Below, one piece after another: positions 1 to 4,360 of a stretch of 4,550 nucleotides of DNA; the stretch's first letter is position 1; every line of letters starts with the position of its first letter. The DNA is from a virus. Its lineage: Duplodnaviria > Heunggongvirae > Uroviricota > Caudoviricetes. The DNA lies in the IMG/VR virus record IMGVR_UViG_2547132270_000007; one strand, written 5' to 3'. The translations under genes were made by a program, and so were the position numbers. Below the pieces are notes generated by a model, which was given only the letters and a program-made list of their open reading frames with translations, was not told the origin of the DNA and searched no databases.

Positions 1-265
1 GCATCACAAAATTCACTTTAAAAAGGGCGGACATCAGCCGAACTTCAAGAAAAAAACTGATGCCGCCAGGACTACACACAGCAATGTCGTTATTCACAAC
101 CGGATGCGCACTCCCACCATTTAAATTTAACAGACAAGACCGACTCTTTATGGATATCGGAAATGCGCCTTCGTGTTGTGCCCGGTTTTATTTCACCACC
201 TCCGGGCTTTGGTGGCCTCGGCTATACCCCTACAGCGAGAATATTGAATTAATCCAAATAATGGA

Positions 266-798: not shown

Positions 799-1263
799 CT
801 ATTTCTTCATGCGTTTCTGAGCTGCCAGCATATTTTCAAACGCTTCTTTGTAGAGTTCATTCTGGCCTTTAAGCCTTTCGATTAGTTTTGCTTTTTCTGA
901 TTCGGGGAGGATATCAAAAAGATCCAGTAAATCAGCTTGTTGCTTGTTAACCATCCGCCACCCTTCGCCTTCGAAACTTTCGTCATAAGTTCCAGAGGAA
1001 CGTACGTAATTCATCAGATCAGCTAAATCAGGCCTCAAGTCTTCAGGCTTAACTCTTAGCAATACTGCGAATTTTAATGCCGCATCAGTGTTAAGTGGAG
1101 CCTTTCCGTTGAGATAGTGGCTAACCGTAGATTGCGTCTCAAAGCCCATTAGCTCGGCAGCAAGCTCCTGAGTCAGTTTGAGCTCTCTTTTTTTTGCATC
1201 CCAGATTCCGCGTAGACGCTGCGTAGCTTCTGGCGATGCGATTTCTTCGCGTTTTCTTCTCAT
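799..1263 (-). CDS. racR: CI-type phage repressor without peptidase domain (RacR-like), 154 aa
   Basis: ORF-track protein has an N-terminal helix-turn-helix (LTQELAAELMGFETQSTVSHYLNG) resembling the lambda CI / P22 C2 DNA-binding domain, and a short helical C-terminus with no LexA-like S24 peptidase motifs. Divergent from the Cro-like gene. Symbol assigned from architecture and synteny, not a search. Confidence 0.85.
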   Translation of the reverse strand: MRRKREEIASPEATQRLRGIWDAKKRELKLTQELAAELMGFETQSTVSHYLNGKAPLNTDAALKFAVLLRVKPEDLRPDLADLMNYVRSSGTYDESFEGEGWRMVNKQQADLLDLFDILPESEKAKLIERLKGQNELYKEAFENMLAAQKRMKK

Positions 1264-1367: not shown

Positions 1368-1643
1368 ATGACATTAGATGAATATTTGAAAAAAAATCGT
1401 GTACGACAGTCTTGTTTGGCCGCGCTGGCTGGTTGTTCGCAATCAATGATTAGCCTCGTTGCTACTGGACGTAGTCAGTTAAGCCCTGAAAAGGTATTGC
1501 GTATCGCAGAGGCTACGAATTTCGAGGTTACACCTCATGAACTCCGGCCTGATATCTACCCGAATCCGACCGATGGTTTACCTGTTGGATGTAAGGCTAA
1601 CACACAAAATGCACAGGAGTTGATTCATGAAAATCAGGCATGA
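1368..1643 (+). CDS. ydaS: Cro-like HTH regulator, YdaS family, 91 aa
   Basis: ORF track 1341-1643. Preferred start is ATG 1368 with SD AAGGTGA (1356-1362) 5 nt upstream; the TTG at 1341 would fall inside the predicted promoter. HTH region QSCLAALAGCSQSMISLVATGRSQLS. First rightward gene after the divergent promoter; overlaps the next gene by 17 nt. Confidence 0.85.
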   Translation: MTLDEYLKKNRVRQSCLAALAGCSQSMISLVATGRSQLSPEKVLRIAEATNFEVTPHELRPDIYPNPTDGLPVGCKANTQNAQELIHENQA

Positions 1644-2049
1644 GCACATCGAATCAGTGCTGTTAGCCCTGGCCGCTGAAAAAGGGCAGGCGTGGGTTGC
1701 TAACGCAATTACTGAAGAATATCTGCGCCAGGGGGGCGGCGAATTGCCCCTGGTACCAGGCAAGGACTGGAATAATCAGCAGAATATCTATCACCGATGG
1801 TTGAAAGGTGAAACAAAAGCGCAAAGGGAAAAAATTCAGAAGCTGATCCCAGCAATTCTGGCAATCCTTCCGCGCGAGCTGCGTCACCGACTCTGCATCT
1901 TCGATACCCTGGAACGCCGTGCATTACTGGCGGCGCAGGAAGCGTTAAGTACGGCAATTGATGCGCATGATGATGCTGTCCAGGCCGTTTACCGGAAAGC
2001 GCATTTCAGCGGCGGTGGTTCGTCCGGCGATTCTGTTGTTGTTCATTAA
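1627..2049 (+). CDS. ydaT: YdaT-family protein (CII-position regulator, historically called a toxin), 140 aa
   Basis: ATG 1627 with SD AGGAG (1615-1619) 7 nt upstream. 140 aa, same length as Rac YdaT; begins MKIRHEHI and ends SGDSVVVH. Sits directly after the Cro-like gene with a 17-nt overlap. Confidence 0.88.
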   Translation: MKIRHEHIESVLLALAAEKGQAWVANAITEEYLRQGGGELPLVPGKDWNNQQNIYHRWLKGETKAQREKIQKLIPAILAILPRELRHRLCIFDTLERRALLAAQEALSTAIDAHDDAVQAVYRKAHFSGGGSSGDSVVVH

Positions 2050-2068
2050 GTGAATAGGGTAACTAACA

Positions 2069-2482
2069 ATGAAAATCAAACCGTTTATCAATGCTGGAAA
2101 TCTTACTCCCGGCGAACTACGAGACTGGATCCTGAAACTTGCAAAAAATGCAGAAATTGCGGGTTGGGGTACAGAAACTTCGGTTCGGAAGCTTCAGAGC
2201 GCAGAACTTAGCCTGCGCTCAGTTATGGACGATTTATCCCCAAGAATTAATTTTCTGGGGTCAGAGCAAATAATTCGTTCGGAAGGTCACTCCAGCGAAG
2301 TTGCGGAAGTTCTGAATACTCTGAGGATAACTTTTGCTGCCGTTCGCGATATTCAACGAACCATTCTCTCATTGATTTCTCAGCTTCAAGAAATTGATAG
2401 TCGCATTCCTGACGGGGGGCATAGAGAGCGTCTTCCAGAATGTGAAGAGCAAGGACAGGGGAAACAGATAAGGGATCAGTAA
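2069..2482 (+). CDS. Hypothetical protein, 137 aa, no family recognised (conflicts with antisense ORF 2247-2702)
   Basis: ATG 19 nt after the ydaT stop, weak SD-like AGGGT 8 nt upstream. Predicted helical protein with acidic C-terminal tail. Around 10 percent rare codons (ATA, AGG, AGA, CGA, GGG). Overlaps the minus-strand ORF by 236 bp, so at most one is likely to be real. Confidence 0.4.
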   Translation: MKIKPFINAGNLTPGELRDWILKLAKNAEIAGWGTETSVRKLQSAELSLRSVMDDLSPRINFLGSEQIIRSEGHSSEVAEVLNTLRITFAAVRDIQRTILSLISQLQEIDSRIPDGGHRERLPECEEQGQGKQIRDQ

Positions 2483-2702
2483 TACGTTTTTCACTTGCCT
2501 GGTATAGCAATCTCGCCAGCGAATCATAGCTACTGGGGCTCAGGAGAGAATCCCGTGAGTGATTTGTAAGAATCAGGTGGAAGCGGGTGAGAACTATAGC
2601 CCTGCATGTTACCAGGTTAACCATGTCGTGGTCGTGCTGGTTAATTTTGTACACAGTGCGCATGTGATTTTTAATTTTTTGGCAAACAGCCATTAAAGAC
2701 AT
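2247..2702 (-). CDS. Hypothetical protein, 151 aa, His/Cys-rich N-terminus, no family recognised; antisense to the early operon
   Basis: Near-consensus SD AAGGAGG (+2709-2715) exactly 6 nt before the ATG (+2700-2702). Perfect TATAAT on the minus strand (+2742-2747) upstream. Fewer rare codons than the overlapping + ORF. Its first 73 codons lie in a region with no plus-strand ORF. Perfect 8-bp hairpin (2197-2220) lies 27 nt past its stop. Confidence 0.5.
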   Translation of the reverse strand: MSLMAVCQKIKNHMRTVYKINQHDHDMVNLVTCRAIVLTRFHLILTNHSRDSLLSPSSYDSLARLLYQASEKRITDPLSVSPVLALHILEDALYAPRQECDYQFLEAEKSMREWFVEYRERQQKLSSEYSELPQLRWSDLPNELFALTPEN

Positions 2703-2765
2703 GTCGAACCTCCTTTGGTTCTGTTGATTGGGGAATCACAGATTATATCCGGAGGAAGGTTCGAC
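2703..2765. promoter_or_regulatory. Inverted-repeat control region between the antisense ORF and the replication initiator
   Basis: 9-bp perfect inverted repeat GTCGAACCT (2703-2711) and AGGTTCGAC (2757-2765), 45 nt apart. It brackets the minus-strand TATAAT (2742-2747); the left arm is the SD-to-start spacer of the minus ORF and the right arm adjoins a plus-strand GGAGG (2751-2755). Confidence 0.35.
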
Positions 2766-2781
2766 ACCAGATGAGGCAATT

Positions 2782-3906
2782 ATGGTTAAGGCTAAAAACA
2801 TGCCAAATCCCATGCCAAAAACTAAGGCAAACAATGAGCCTTATCGCAAGGTAAAAATAACGATATGGGATGATCCCAAATTTAGGGCGTTATCTCCTCT
2901 GCCTCCAAGTGGACAGAGTTTGTTTATTTATCTGCTGACCAGTCCATTTACCGGGATTATTCCCGGGTTGTTTAAAGCCGGGCGGGCAGCAATGGCTGAA
3001 GAGTTGGGGTGGGATATTGAAGCCTTTGACTTAGCCTTAGGCGAAGCCATGAAGCTTGGCATGGTGAAAGCAGATATCAAAGCCAGAGTTTTTTGGCTCC
3101 CGAATGCTGCGAAACACAATCCGCCAAACTCGATAAATGTCATTAAATCTTGGGCAAAGGCATTCGCTTTAATTCCTGATTGCCCTCTCAAATGGGAGGC
3201 CAGGGAATCGCTGAGAGCGGCGTCCTACGGGGTTTCTGAGGCTTTGGGGATGGCATTCGATAAGGCAATCCCTTTGCCTGAGGATAAGCCTAAGGATAAG
3301 GCTAACGCTTTGTCATGCGGTATCCAGATAACAGATAACAGATATATAAACCCCACACATAACGCGCGCGTGCGCGAGAGTGCTCTGACCAGTGAGTCGA
3401 ATGATTTGCCGTTACAGGCAGCGGAACCTGATTACCTGGAAGGCCTGAGCGAACCCATCGGGAAATTTCCGATGACCGATGGCTGGCATCCGTCGCCGGA
3501 TTTCCGACGGCGGGCTGCACTGTGGGGAGTGGCTCTGCCGGAGCCGGAATTTACACCTGCTGAACTTGCCGCCTTCCGGGACTACTGGGCAGCGGAGGGG
3601 AAAGTTTTCACGCAGGTTCAGTGGGAGCAGAAATTCGCCCGTCACGTAAATCACGTCAGGGCGCAGGTTAAACCAGTCAGCAAGGGGGTGAACCATGCAG
3701 CAGCACCAGGTGGCACCGCATCACGGGCAGTTCAGGAAATTCGGGCAGCACGTGAGCAGTGGGAACGTGAAAACGGATTTATCCGCGACGGAAACGGCGT
3801 GGAAGCTGTGGGAACTCATGGGGGAGGTTTATTCGAACCGCTGGACCCAGAAGAACGGGGCCGCACCTTCGAAGCTCTGGATTGCACAGATTGGCGCGAT
3901 GACTGA
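2782..3906 (+). CDS. Phage replication initiation protein with DnaT-like C-terminal domain, about 374 aa
   Basis: ORF track 2728-3906 begins at a TTG with no SD. Preferred start is in-frame ATG 2782 with GAGG 5 nt upstream (ATG 2800 is an alternative). N-terminal region WDDPKFRALS...LFIYLLT looks like a phage replisome-organiser DNA-binding domain; a low-complexity linker follows; then a DnaT-like motif (WHPSPDF...FRDYWAAEGKVFTQVQWEQKFARHV). Sits immediately upstream of a lambda-P-like gene. Confidence 0.85.
   Translation: MVKAKNMPNPMPKTKANNEPYRKVKITIWDDPKFRALSPLPPSGQSLFIYLLTSPFTGIIPGLFKAGRAAMAEELGWDIEAFDLALGEAMKLGMVKADIKARVFWLPNAAKHNPPNSINVIKSWAKAFALIPDCPLKWEARESLRAASYGVSEALGMAFDKAIPLPEDKPKDKANALSCGIQITDNRYINPTHNARVRESALTSESNDLPLQAAEPDYLEGLSEPIGKFPMTDGWHPSPDFRRRAALWGVALPEPEFTPAELAAFRDYWAAEGKVFTQVQWEQKFARHVNHVRAQVKPVSKGVNHAAAPGGTASRAVQEIRAAREQWERENGFIRDGNGVEAVGTHGGGLFEPLDPEERGRTFEALDCTDWRDD
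3259..3380. repeat. Origin-like repeat cluster inside the initiator gene linker (candidate ori)
   Basis: GATAAGGC (3259-3266); tandem GGATAAGCCTAA / GGATAAGGCTAA (3282-3305); tandem CAGATAA CAGATAA CAGATAT (3325-3345); AT-rich TATATAAA; then an alternating CG tract CGCGCGCGTGCGCG (3363-3376). The order (iterons, AT-rich, GC-rich) parallels lambda ori, which lies within the O gene. Confidence 0.4.
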
Positions 3907-4360
3907 GCAGCAAATCCGGCAGGTCTGCCGCCAGTGCATGGACCGTTGCAGGGCAGGTGAAACATGGCCTCCGGACCTGGCTGAGTTTGTGGCGCTGATT
4001 TCGGAGAGCGGGGCAAATCCATTTGGTCTGACGGTGGATAACGTGATGGAGGAATATCGCCGCTGGCGCAATGAGTCCTGGCGATACGACGGGAGTGATA
4101 AATACCCGTGGTCTCAGCCCGTGCTGTATCACATTTGCCTCGAGATGCGGGCAAAAGGGATTGAGCGTCAGATGACCGAAGGGGAGTTAAAACGACTTGC
4201 AGAACGGCAACTGGCGAAATGGGCAAAGCTTGTTGGTGACGGCTTCAGCGTTCCGCCCGTCCGGCGGCAACTGGTAGCACCAAAACGCCCGTCGGGGCCA
4301 ACTCCAATTGAGTTGCTGAAACAGGAATATGAACGCCGGAAAGCGGCTGGGTTTGTTTGA
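3695..4360 (+). CDS. Lambda P-family replication protein (DnaB helicase loader), up to 221 aa
   Basis: Recalled lambda P sequence aligns by eye over the C-terminal two thirds (ours [10 protein letters not shown]...YPWSQ...[11 protein letters not shown]...PPVRRQL vs lambda PSPGQFVAW...YPWKS...LTDAELRRKAA...EPVKQL). ATG 3695 has a strong SD (AAGGGGGTG, 6-nt spacing) and gives near-lambda-P length. Alternative in-frame starts are ATG 3818 and ATG 3899; the weak similarity seen upstream of residue 69 argues against 3899. Confidence 0.85.

Follow-up and report, generated by a model that had tools for sequence, protein, structure and literature searches.

The locus downstream of ydaT

We analyzed a stretch of 4,550 nucleotides (nt) from a virus of the class Caudoviricetes (IMG/VR record IMGVR_UViG_2547132270_000007), hereafter the window, which spans the genes for immunity and replication in a Rac-like lambdoid prophage. 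The analysis centers on a plus-strand open reading frame (ORF) of 137 codons, denoted gene B, which a first-pass annotation made from the sequence alone had placed in the early operon directly after ydaT, and on a 151-codon ORF of the opposite strand, denoted gene A, which converges on B and partially overlaps it. Comparison with relatives indicates that B is very probably genuine and belongs to the early rightward operon (with the order ydaS, ydaT, B, replication genes), that A is genuine as well, and that the overlap is dual-coded. B was already known as an annotated hypothetical protein (WP_000695003.1 in RefSeq/PGAP); the deeply conserved antisense dual-coding pair and the leader in front of A are new. 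The features of the pair are listed below, with their basis in brackets (aa, amino acids; AF2, AlphaFold 2; pLDDT, predicted local distance difference test score).

2069..2482, plus strand: gene B, 137 aa and stop codon (ATG 2069, TAA 2480-2482), PHROG 37051 family (ORF list)
2247..2702, minus strand: gene A, 151 aa and stop codon (ATG 2702), convergent with B (ORF list)
2247..2482, both strands: tail-to-tail A/B overlap, 236 nt (ORF coordinates)
2056..2060, plus strand: weak Shine-Dalgarno-like AGGGT, 8 nt 5' of the ATG of B (sequence reading)
2069..2245, plus strand: B codons 1-59, free of any overlap, from the N-terminal segment through helix 1 into the beginning of helix 2 (diversity by codon position)
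2249..2398, both strands: putative dual-coding core, in which the end of helix 2, the loop and helix 3 of B (codons 61-110) lie opposite A codons ~102-151 (diversity, codon identity, AF2 model)
2399..2479, plus strand: tail of B, codons 111-137, unconstrained read-through antisense to A (diversity pattern, variable stop, pLDDT)

The arrangement described by the first-pass annotation was reproduced: the ydaT-like ORF ends at 2049, 19 nt before the 137-codon ORF, the antisense ORF overlaps it as proposed, and the gene order bears out the slot between the CII-like gene and the replication initiator. That annotation had also remarked on the weak Shine-Dalgarno sequence, which we find as listed, and on a larger number of rare codons in B than in the antisense ORF, a difference that turned out to be marginal (22/133 against 16/144; 0.566 for B against 0.585 for A on a scale like the codon adaptation index) and does not discriminate between the frames. 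Three other ORFs of the window, 94-136 aa long and located inside the replication genes in antisense or in another frame, are evidently not genes, so the length of the B ORF is by itself not beyond chance, and the question of its reality had to rest on comparison with relatives.

Relatives and predicted products of B and A

A single-sequence search with B yielded only relatives with at least 85% identity, which initially seemed to favor the idea that B is a shadow frame of A. This narrow range was an artefact of word-index sensitivity and gene calling, and was overturned by reading the loci themselves and by profile searches. Opposite each distant A homologue there is an ATG-started ORF of 110-147 aa, with its N-terminal part outside A, that aligns with B as a protein, as illustrated here for the N-terminal regions from the window and three related loci (numbered with the prefix L throughout).

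Window: KPFINAGNLTPGELRDWILKLA
L003: QPIINAADLSPKDLRVWLSKLA
L005: KPYIHAGNLGPKEFRTWIIDMA
L006: KPYVHAGELSPEELRTWLHQVS

A profile of the distant B sequences recovered 22 database proteins, and an exhaustive hidden Markov model search of 1.84 billion representative proteins gave 34 matches at E <= 1e-3, about 30 of them clearly B-like, with 114-175 aa and the same motif layout, down to ~20% identity. Most of the diverged relatives are preceded by a clear AGGAGG, AAGGA or GGAG at the same spacing, in otherwise unrelated upstream DNA. B matches PHROG 37051, a family labeled ‘unknown function’, over its entire length (309 bits, E 5.7e-93; residues 1-137 align with positions 1-137 of the 137-position profile), as do 27 of the 31 diverged B-family members scanned, and has no match in Pfam, NCBIfam or PADLOC, so that the earlier remark on the lack of an obvious known early function stands; a diverged B homologue compared with PADLOC gave a chance-level match only (E 0.043). 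We found in B no helix-turn-helix or POU-type DNA-binding domain of the kind present in early regulators of the Cro, CII, YdaS and YdaT types, and a Foldseek comparison of the B model with viral structures returned nothing at E <= 0.001. Sequence-profile searches of the PDB returned coiled-coil matches at chance level only.

The first-pass annotation predicted a helical product with an acidic tail, and the AF2 model of B, built from the family alignment, agrees: it has helices at residues 14-30, 35-64 and 72-112 (mean pLDDT 73), and residues 113-137 form a mildly acidic tail with an isoelectric point (pI) of 5.0. The pLDDT is 82-94 in the hairpin and overlap core and below 50 at residues 116-137, which are predicted to be disordered. 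The modeled core would thus comprise ~110 residues, with an N-terminal segment and a helix followed by a long helical hairpin, the loop of which bears a conserved R-I-N-F-L-x-S-x-Q-I motif; in the form R-I-N/D-F-L-x-S-x-Q-I, this motif is retained even in copies of B that lack A. The border between core and tail in the model coincides with the evolutionary one described below. B does not resemble a membrane protein (maximum hydropathy over 19 residues 0.91, grand average of hydropathy, GRAVY, about -0.4).

In several loci, B is preceded by an unannotated protein of ~83-86 aa (...FQGFVLPMIGELI...; L034 4677-4937, L049 3707-3967, L050 3719-3970) that has no Pfam or PHROG match. In the 215-aa protein P0062, a B homologue is fused to the 86-aa protein found 5' of B in several loci, and this fusion suggests a functional link between B and its upstream neighbor.

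Database searches with A identified full-length homologues of 151 aa, down to 48% identity, in Salmonella and Serratia; more distant homologues (155-157 aa) were recognized by eye from the shared motif, position and leader rather than by score. The length of A is held at 151-157 aa in all lineages, and a perfect AAGGAGG ribosome-binding site (RBS) precedes it in every lineage except the most divergent one (L007). The most conserved segment is a C-terminal W-x-D-L-P-N-E/D-L-F motif, invariant across the family, which sits in a low-confidence tail of the model, the kind of place expected for a short linear binding motif. AF2 predicts A to be all-helical, with a pLDDT of 58, too poor for a fold search, and the protein is not membrane-like (maximum 19-residue hydropathy 1.51, GRAVY about -0.4). 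Neither Pfam, PHROG, NCBIfam nor PADLOC contains a match to A, and two diverged homologues compared with PADLOC gave none either. A constitutes a protein family that has not been previously recognized.

Coding constraint on both strands

The last 78 codons of B and the last 78 codons of A share the same DNA, in a phase in which position 1 of B faces position 1 of A, position 2 of B faces position 3 of A, and position 3 of B faces position 2 of A. At least 11 lineages keep both ORFs intact, with 151-157 aa for A, 110-150 aa for B and ATG starts in both; the three most distant pairs were taken as relatives because they have motifs, position and leader in common, no score being used. The length of the overlap in the relatives varies between 158 and 272 nt. 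Loci fetched through distant B proteins retain the convergent overlap as well (272 nt in L052 and L055; 236 and 194 nt in L060 and L061), and their A proteins have 155 aa and end in ...W-[SN]-D-L-P-N-E-L-F.

We compared nucleotide diversity at the three codon positions across 8 independent lineages with 44-58% identity in A, fetched via A; the same lineages were used for the codon tests. The values below are for codon positions 1/2/3 of the gene named.

A, non-overlapping part (73 codons): 0.42/0.29/0.54, canonical coding pattern
B, non-overlapping codons 1-59: 0.49/0.39/0.61, canonical coding pattern
B, overlapping codons 61-110: 0.22/0.28/0.24, all positions constrained
B, overlapping codons 111-137: 0.32/0.63/0.25, as expected from the frame of A alone

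Thus, outside the overlap each gene shows the pattern of an ordinary coding sequence. The distance from the ATG of B to the stop of A is 175, 178, 181, 184 or 208 nt depending on the lineage, and the differences are all multiples of 3. When two lineages have the same residue in A, they use the identical codon in 75% of the cases opposite the B core, in 39% opposite the B tail and in 47% where A lies alone. The synonymous sites of A are frozen only opposite the structured core of B, codons 61-110. In the tail, the stop position of B shifts among relatives (yielding proteins of 110-150 aa); the functional part of B stops near codon 110, and the disordered tail is dispensable. Opposite the invariant motif of A, the residues of B vary (QII, EII, ETT, QID), so A is the dominant constraint in that short stretch.

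To gauge avoidance of stop codons, we resampled the synonymous codons of A while keeping its protein, and followed the frame of B for 50 codons into the overlap. The frame remained open in 7-27% of the trials per lineage with the codon usage of the genes themselves and in 25-60% with E. coli usage. In reality, it is open in 8 of 8 lineages, with a joint probability between ~5e-7 and 5e-4 (per-lineage values multiplied by hand). Among close relatives, the ratio of nonsynonymous to synonymous differences (pN/pS) is 0.40 in the free part of B and 0.51 in that of A. The first-pass annotation had proposed that relatives with stops or frameshifts in B and an intact A would identify B as the shadow frame. 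Such relatives were not seen: the lineages carrying A keep the ATG of B and an open frame to at least codon 110, with the exception of L007.

Taken together, these comparisons make it highly likely that both frames are under selection at the protein level and that the part of the overlap encoding the B core is doubly constrained. The overlap is ancient, and we are fairly confident that the locus represents a rare, well-supported case in which one DNA stretch encodes two proteins in opposite directions.

Natural loss of either partner

Several related loci amount to natural knock-outs. L049 carries two tandem paralogues of B; opposite the first, which is intact (120 aa), the frame of A is a decayed remnant with the N-terminus gone and the C-terminal motif destroyed, and the second shares its DNA with an intact, diverged A of 157 aa. 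All that is left of A in L050 is the leader and the first codons, and this leader points straight into an intact B (118 aa). B is intact also in L071, where the N-terminal half of A is lost, in L070, where only an 87-aa piece of A is open, and in L031, where the start of A is deleted. For a pair of genes with B only, the normally dual-coded region shows diversities of 0.34/0.28/0.36, a shift toward the ordinary pattern that comes from a single pair and is weak. In the reciprocal case, L007 from Trabulsiella, A is intact and the N-terminus of B is swapped for an unrelated sequence.

The leader of gene A

Upstream of A lies a leader that is much better conserved than either protein (~20-50% identity among the proteins), with the following parts.

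2703..2770, minus strand: leader of A, ~70 nt, nearly invariant, conserved across all lineages
2770-2765, minus strand: -35-like CTGGTG
2765-2754, minus strand: 5' arm of an inverted repeat, GTCGAACCTTCC
2747-2742, minus strand: -10-like TATAAT
2715-2703, minus strand: 3' arm, GGAGGTTCGAC, which includes the AAGGAGG ribosome-binding site and is followed by ATG 2702

The aligned leaders share TTGgtg, 17 nt and TAnnnT between the arms, some with an upstream TG, which makes this arrangement a plausible candidate for a sigma-70 promoter. The arms fold into a long hairpin on either strand (z -3.65 for the A-sense RNA and -3.96 for the other strand). The leader has no match in Rfam at E <= 1, and RNAalifold detected no compensatory pairs in this almost invariant element; by eye, the leader of L007 contains two compensatory changes and a compensating insertion. 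The patterns of G-U versus C-A pairs, also read by eye, disagree on the folding strand: L052, L057 and the majority variant favor a rightward RNA, and L006 favors an A-sense RNA. The repeat may mask the RBS in the mRNA of A, function in the rightward operon RNA, or act as a DNA element.

Of 5426 complete E. coli genomes, 635 (about 12%) carry the leader, where it stands before unrelated leftward genes, including an ECs1072-family gene in prophage CP-933P of E. coli O157:H7, a bssS-family gene, and an 83-aa ORF in E. coli strain C7, with the junction immediately after ATGTCTTT. Given these unrelated leftward genes, the slot behaves as a cargo hotspot with a portable leader, and the leader may serve as a portable promoter, an RBS-masking element or a recombination linker for prophage cargo. 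A microarray signal has been reported for ECs1072 in uninduced cultures of O157:H7 Sakai (PMC2241611), which offers weak and indirect support for leftward expression in the lysogen; ECs1072 is an unrelated gene behind the same leader.

Two further sequence features touch the leader. The first is TTGATTGGGGAATCAC (2724-2739, plus strand), a palindrome resembling YdaT half-sites, with a 4-nt rather than 6-nt spacer, found only in the YdaT-carrying lineage. Control of the A promoter by YdaT through this site (TTGATT-GGGG-AATCAC) was considered and rejected as a general mechanism because the spacer is N4 and the published one N6, and because the motif is absent in lineages without YdaT. The second is the best sigma-70-like match of the region, TTGGCA-16 nt-CATAAT (10 of 12 positions; 2779-2806, minus strand), which lies over the start codon of the O-like gene; this leftward site is lineage-specific and would transcribe the entire leader of A including the 5' arm. 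It was the only promoter-like site found in a promoter and terminator scan of the region, which revealed no convincing terminators.

Genomic context of the cassette

The genes flanking the pair in the window are as follows.

799-1263, minus strand: cI-type helix-turn-helix repressor gene (ORF list and family search)
1368-1643, plus strand: YdaS/Cro-type gene, ydaS (ORF list and family search)
1627..2049, plus strand: ydaT-like gene, the CII equivalent and upstream operon neighbor of B (Pfam YdaT_toxin, E 1.7e-11; RefSeq annotation)
2782..3906, plus strand: DnaT-domain replication initiator (O-like), the next rightward gene past the A/B cassette (Pfam DnaT, E 4.4e-18; annotations)

A lambda-P-like gene follows, ending at 4360. 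In prophages, B always comes after cro, or after cro and the YdaT gene, in the rightward early operon, and A is always opposite to B and oriented like the repressor gene. The modules that follow the cassette vary and include replication genes of the DnaT, DnaC/DnaB and HTH_36 types; in L005, a CII-like activator (PHROG 101) follows. The two genes remain paired outside this usual context, next to transposase genes in L006 and by a RecE-type leftward operon in L037. The GC content of the cassette is 45%, compared to 52-57% in the flanking genes, and the promoter and terminator scan predicted no intrinsic terminator between A and B. A and B form a mobile, low-GC two-gene cassette, which many enterobacterial lambdoid prophages carry between cro or the CII equivalent and the replication genes. 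The ~1200 bp surrounding the pair are 96-98.5% identical to prophages in 22 of the 5426 complete E. coli genomes, and the ydaT portion alone is present in ~1600 further genomes of this set.

Other occupants of the slot were observed. In strain C7 (L072, 1963-2511), the place from ydaT to the DnaT-type replication gene is taken by two unrelated convergent genes, a rightward one of 98 aa and a leftward one of 83 aa, which abut without overlapping; the leftward gene uses the identical leader, and neither has a family match. In CP-933P of E. coli O157:H7 EC4115 (L073), an unannotated 169-aa ORF lies directly after ydaT (2709-3218, minus strand of the locus). The first ~70 residues of this ORF are similar to B (hhalign probability 79%, E 1.5e-5), and its C-terminal part is antisense to the annotated ECs1072-family gene, with a 317-nt overlap. 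The two may represent another case of antisense overlap, here in a prophage that has been well studied. ECs1072 itself was considered as a distant homologue of A and rejected (hhalign probability 0.1%). In our searches of the literature on YdaS/YdaT and CP-933P, the genes in this slot were not mentioned.

Annotation pipelines split over the pair: RefSeq/PGAP keeps B only, and a large metagenome collection with Prodigal-type calls mostly has A only. Both genes are listed in one phage record only, PP818812.1 (L002), deposited as ‘Actinobacillus phage vB_Apl-pPE4’, a phage of Actinobacillus pleuropneumoniae. This host assignment looks doubtful because the sequence is 96% identical to E. coli Rac-like prophages across this region and carries RecE, Kil, DicA-like and YdaT genes.

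Several observations concern the rest of the window. The listed P-like ORF of 221 aa, with its start at ATG 3695, shares 212 nt with the O-like gene (3695-3906, plus strand) in a different frame; this long version is probably over-extended because RefSeq places the start of P much later in the related locus L001, where the overlap is 8 nt. The start of the O-like gene also varies by annotation (303 aa in RefSeq and 374 aa in PP818812). At positions 25-80, minus strand, there is a DicF-like small RNA (Rfam RF00039; E 3.9e-6; 39.1 bits, under the gathering score of 48), which spans the whole length of the Rfam model and lies in the leftward operon, upstream of the position of kilR in related prophages. 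At the junction of ydaS and ydaT, TTGATTCATGAAAATCAG (1620-1637, plus strand) fits the published YdaT operator consensus TTGATT-N6-AATCAA, site OM of CP-933P (PMC9986795), and would be consistent with a YdaT-controlled, PRE-like promoter at this junction.

Possible functions and alternative explanations

How might such a pair work? After induction, the early rightward promoter would drive B; A would have a leftward promoter of its own, active probably in the lysogen. Convergent polymerases would collide, the two mRNAs would be complementary over at least 236 nt, and expression of one gene should depress the other, resulting in a toggle between the lysogenic and the lytic state. In this scheme, A could be a lysogen-expressed accessory or exclusion-type protein acting via its C-terminal motif, and B a protein of the early lytic phase that may work against A or on a target in the host. 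The suggestion of the first-pass annotation that B could be a new early-operon regulator or host-takeover gene is a guess. We propose only tentatively, considering it possible but short of even, that this mutual antagonism is a selected regulatory feature. A more far-reaching version, which we deem unlikely, is that A and B are a self-contained antisense switch cassette in which each mRNA is the antisense regulator of the other, the lysogen makes A, the induced phage makes B, and the leader is an undescribed portable platform for expression or recombination of leftward cargo.

Several points weigh against the overall explanation: the toggle is read from the architecture alone; the promoter of A is inferred at the consensus level only, TTGgtg/TAnnnT falling below the scanner threshold; the pN/pS of 0.4-0.6 among close relatives signifies merely moderate purifying selection; other prophages carry unrelated gene pairs in the same slot; and B occurs without A at several loci, and A without the N-terminus of B at one. 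Because unrelated pairs occupy the slot elsewhere, the pairing of A and B could be historical rather than functional, and because each occurs without the other, they need not be functional partners.

One alternative, which we regard as somewhat unlikely, is that A and B are both real but functionally unrelated, the slot being a cargo hotspot and the overlap a frozen accident without regulatory meaning. It accommodates the same leader in front of the ECs1072 family, the bssS family and the 83-aa ORF, the non-overlapping convergent pair of strain C7, the loci in which one partner is missing or truncated, and the B-like N-terminus of CP-933P joined to a different C-terminus that overlaps ECs1072. 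However, the overlap has been kept in at least 11 lineages in which the proteins are only ~20-50% identical and the flanking modules have been exchanged, the cassette is still paired outside its usual context (L006, L037), and a purely accidental overlap would be expected to be resolved more often.

Alternatively, the cassette could be a toxin-antitoxin-like or defense/counter-defense pair, in which A is an exclusion or abortive infection effector of the lysogen, and B, or its antisense mRNA, the antidote made when the resident phage goes lytic. A mobile low-GC two-gene cassette in a prophage cargo slot would fit such a role, as would the convergent 3' overlap, which is the geometry of several type I toxin-antitoxin loci, and the L050 leader that points straight into B after the deletion of A; furthermore, both members of an antisense-overlapping pair of Pseudomonas phage Fc02 confer superinfection exclusion (PMC9936078). 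Nevertheless, we consider this quite unlikely: there is no PADLOC or Pfam match, neither protein is like a small membrane toxin given the hydropathy maxima of 1.51 for A and 0.91 for B, and the free-standing copies of B speak against it being an antidote only. The toggle, the defense pair and the unrelated neighbors are not mutually exclusive.

Far less probable is the possibility that only B is real and the 151-aa antisense ORF is its shadow. Annotation of B only by RefSeq/PGAP, the absence of a PHROG, Pfam or NCBIfam family for A, its decay at several loci with intact B and its poor AF2 model all point in that direction, but the 73 non-overlapping codons of A show a coding pattern, its length is held across the family behind a perfect RBS and a conserved leader, its C-terminal motif is invariant while the residues of B on the same DNA change, and A is intact in L007 although the N-terminus of B is gone. 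The converse, suggested by the first-pass annotation, that B is a non-coding frame open and conserved merely because A constrains the opposite strand, is scarcely credible. In its favor, codons 111-137 do behave as a shadow of A, 7-60% of the resamplings per lineage leave the B frame open by chance given the A protein, and Prodigal-type calls choose A on most contigs. Against it, 43% of B (codons 1-59) lies outside A and still has the coding pattern, a conserved ATG and only indels that keep the frame, B survives at loci with a decayed A, the B family comprises ~30 diverged clusters, and the synonymous sites of A are frozen specifically opposite the B core. Of the choice between the two frames posed by that annotation, the reality of B stands and the antisense ORF as the sole real gene falls, both genes being, by this evidence, real.

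Comparison with known systems

The nearest functional precedent that we found, by analogy, is the pair of gene 10 and olg1 from Fc02, in which the gene after ner overlaps, in antisense, a gene expressed in the lysogen, and both exclude superinfecting phages (PMC9936078). The two pairs are alike in that the lysis-lysogeny region of a temperate phage holds an early lytic gene directly after a cro/ner-type regulator, antisense to one that is transcribed together with the repressor. They differ in that Fc02 is a Mu-like (B3-type) phage with no sequence relationship to A/B found, and that exclusion by the Fc02 genes was shown by experiment, whereas A and B are known here from sequence alone; deep conservation of the overlap was not the point of that study.

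In E. coli O157:H7, antisense overlapping genes have been reported mainly on the support of ribosome profiling, and none of the three genes described lies in a phage region (PMC9927249). The likeness to A/B is that of protein-coding ORFs antisense to annotated genes, where annotation pipelines disallow one of the two. Those cases are mostly young and narrowly distributed, whereas the support for A/B is the reverse, namely, deep conservation of both frames and dual constraint.

In phage lambda, the leftward pO/oop unit starts just upstream of the replication gene and is antisense to the 3' end of the preceding early-right gene. A shares this geometry, with a leftward start by the replication gene and an antisense run into the 3' end of the preceding early-right gene, but oop, 77 nt long, is a non-coding RNA that has its own terminator, whereas A encodes a protein of 151 aa and no terminator is predicted for it; there was no Rfam match. 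Type I toxin-antitoxin modules of the txpA/RatA type are convergent and often prophage-borne, and their RNAs pair over the 3' ends. They combine a non-coding RNA partner with a small hydrophobic toxin, whereas A and B are predicted to be soluble helical proteins of 151 and 137 aa; neither a hydrophobic toxin peptide nor a non-coding antisense RNA was recognized in the pair. With respect to type II modules, A and B are convergent and have no Pfam, NCBIfam or PADLOC match. With respect to phage morons, a comparison considered for A, the GC content is 45% against 52-57% in the flanks, a candidate promoter is read from the aligned TTGgtg-17-TAnnnT only, and no terminator is predicted. The closest database entry, PHROG 37051, to which B and most of its diverged relatives belong, carries no function label and, as far as the tools show, no record of an antisense gene. 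Should the antisense switch cassette prove true, it would resemble a type I toxin-antitoxin or oop-type circuit, with protein-coding genes as its parts.

For bacteria, the existence of long antisense overlaps is a matter of dispute, and annotation software forbids them. Against this background, the A/B locus is an unusually clean comparative case, in which both frames are kept over deep divergence, natural knock-outs of either partner exist, and the double constraint maps to the folded part of B and is absent over the disordered tail. Both start codons lie outside the overlap, so that each gene can be inactivated without touching the other. More broadly, the locus draws attention to an unrecognized protein family, A, and to a widespread conserved leader that precedes prophage cargo genes, including one in the well-studied prophage CP-933P of E. 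coli O157:H7.

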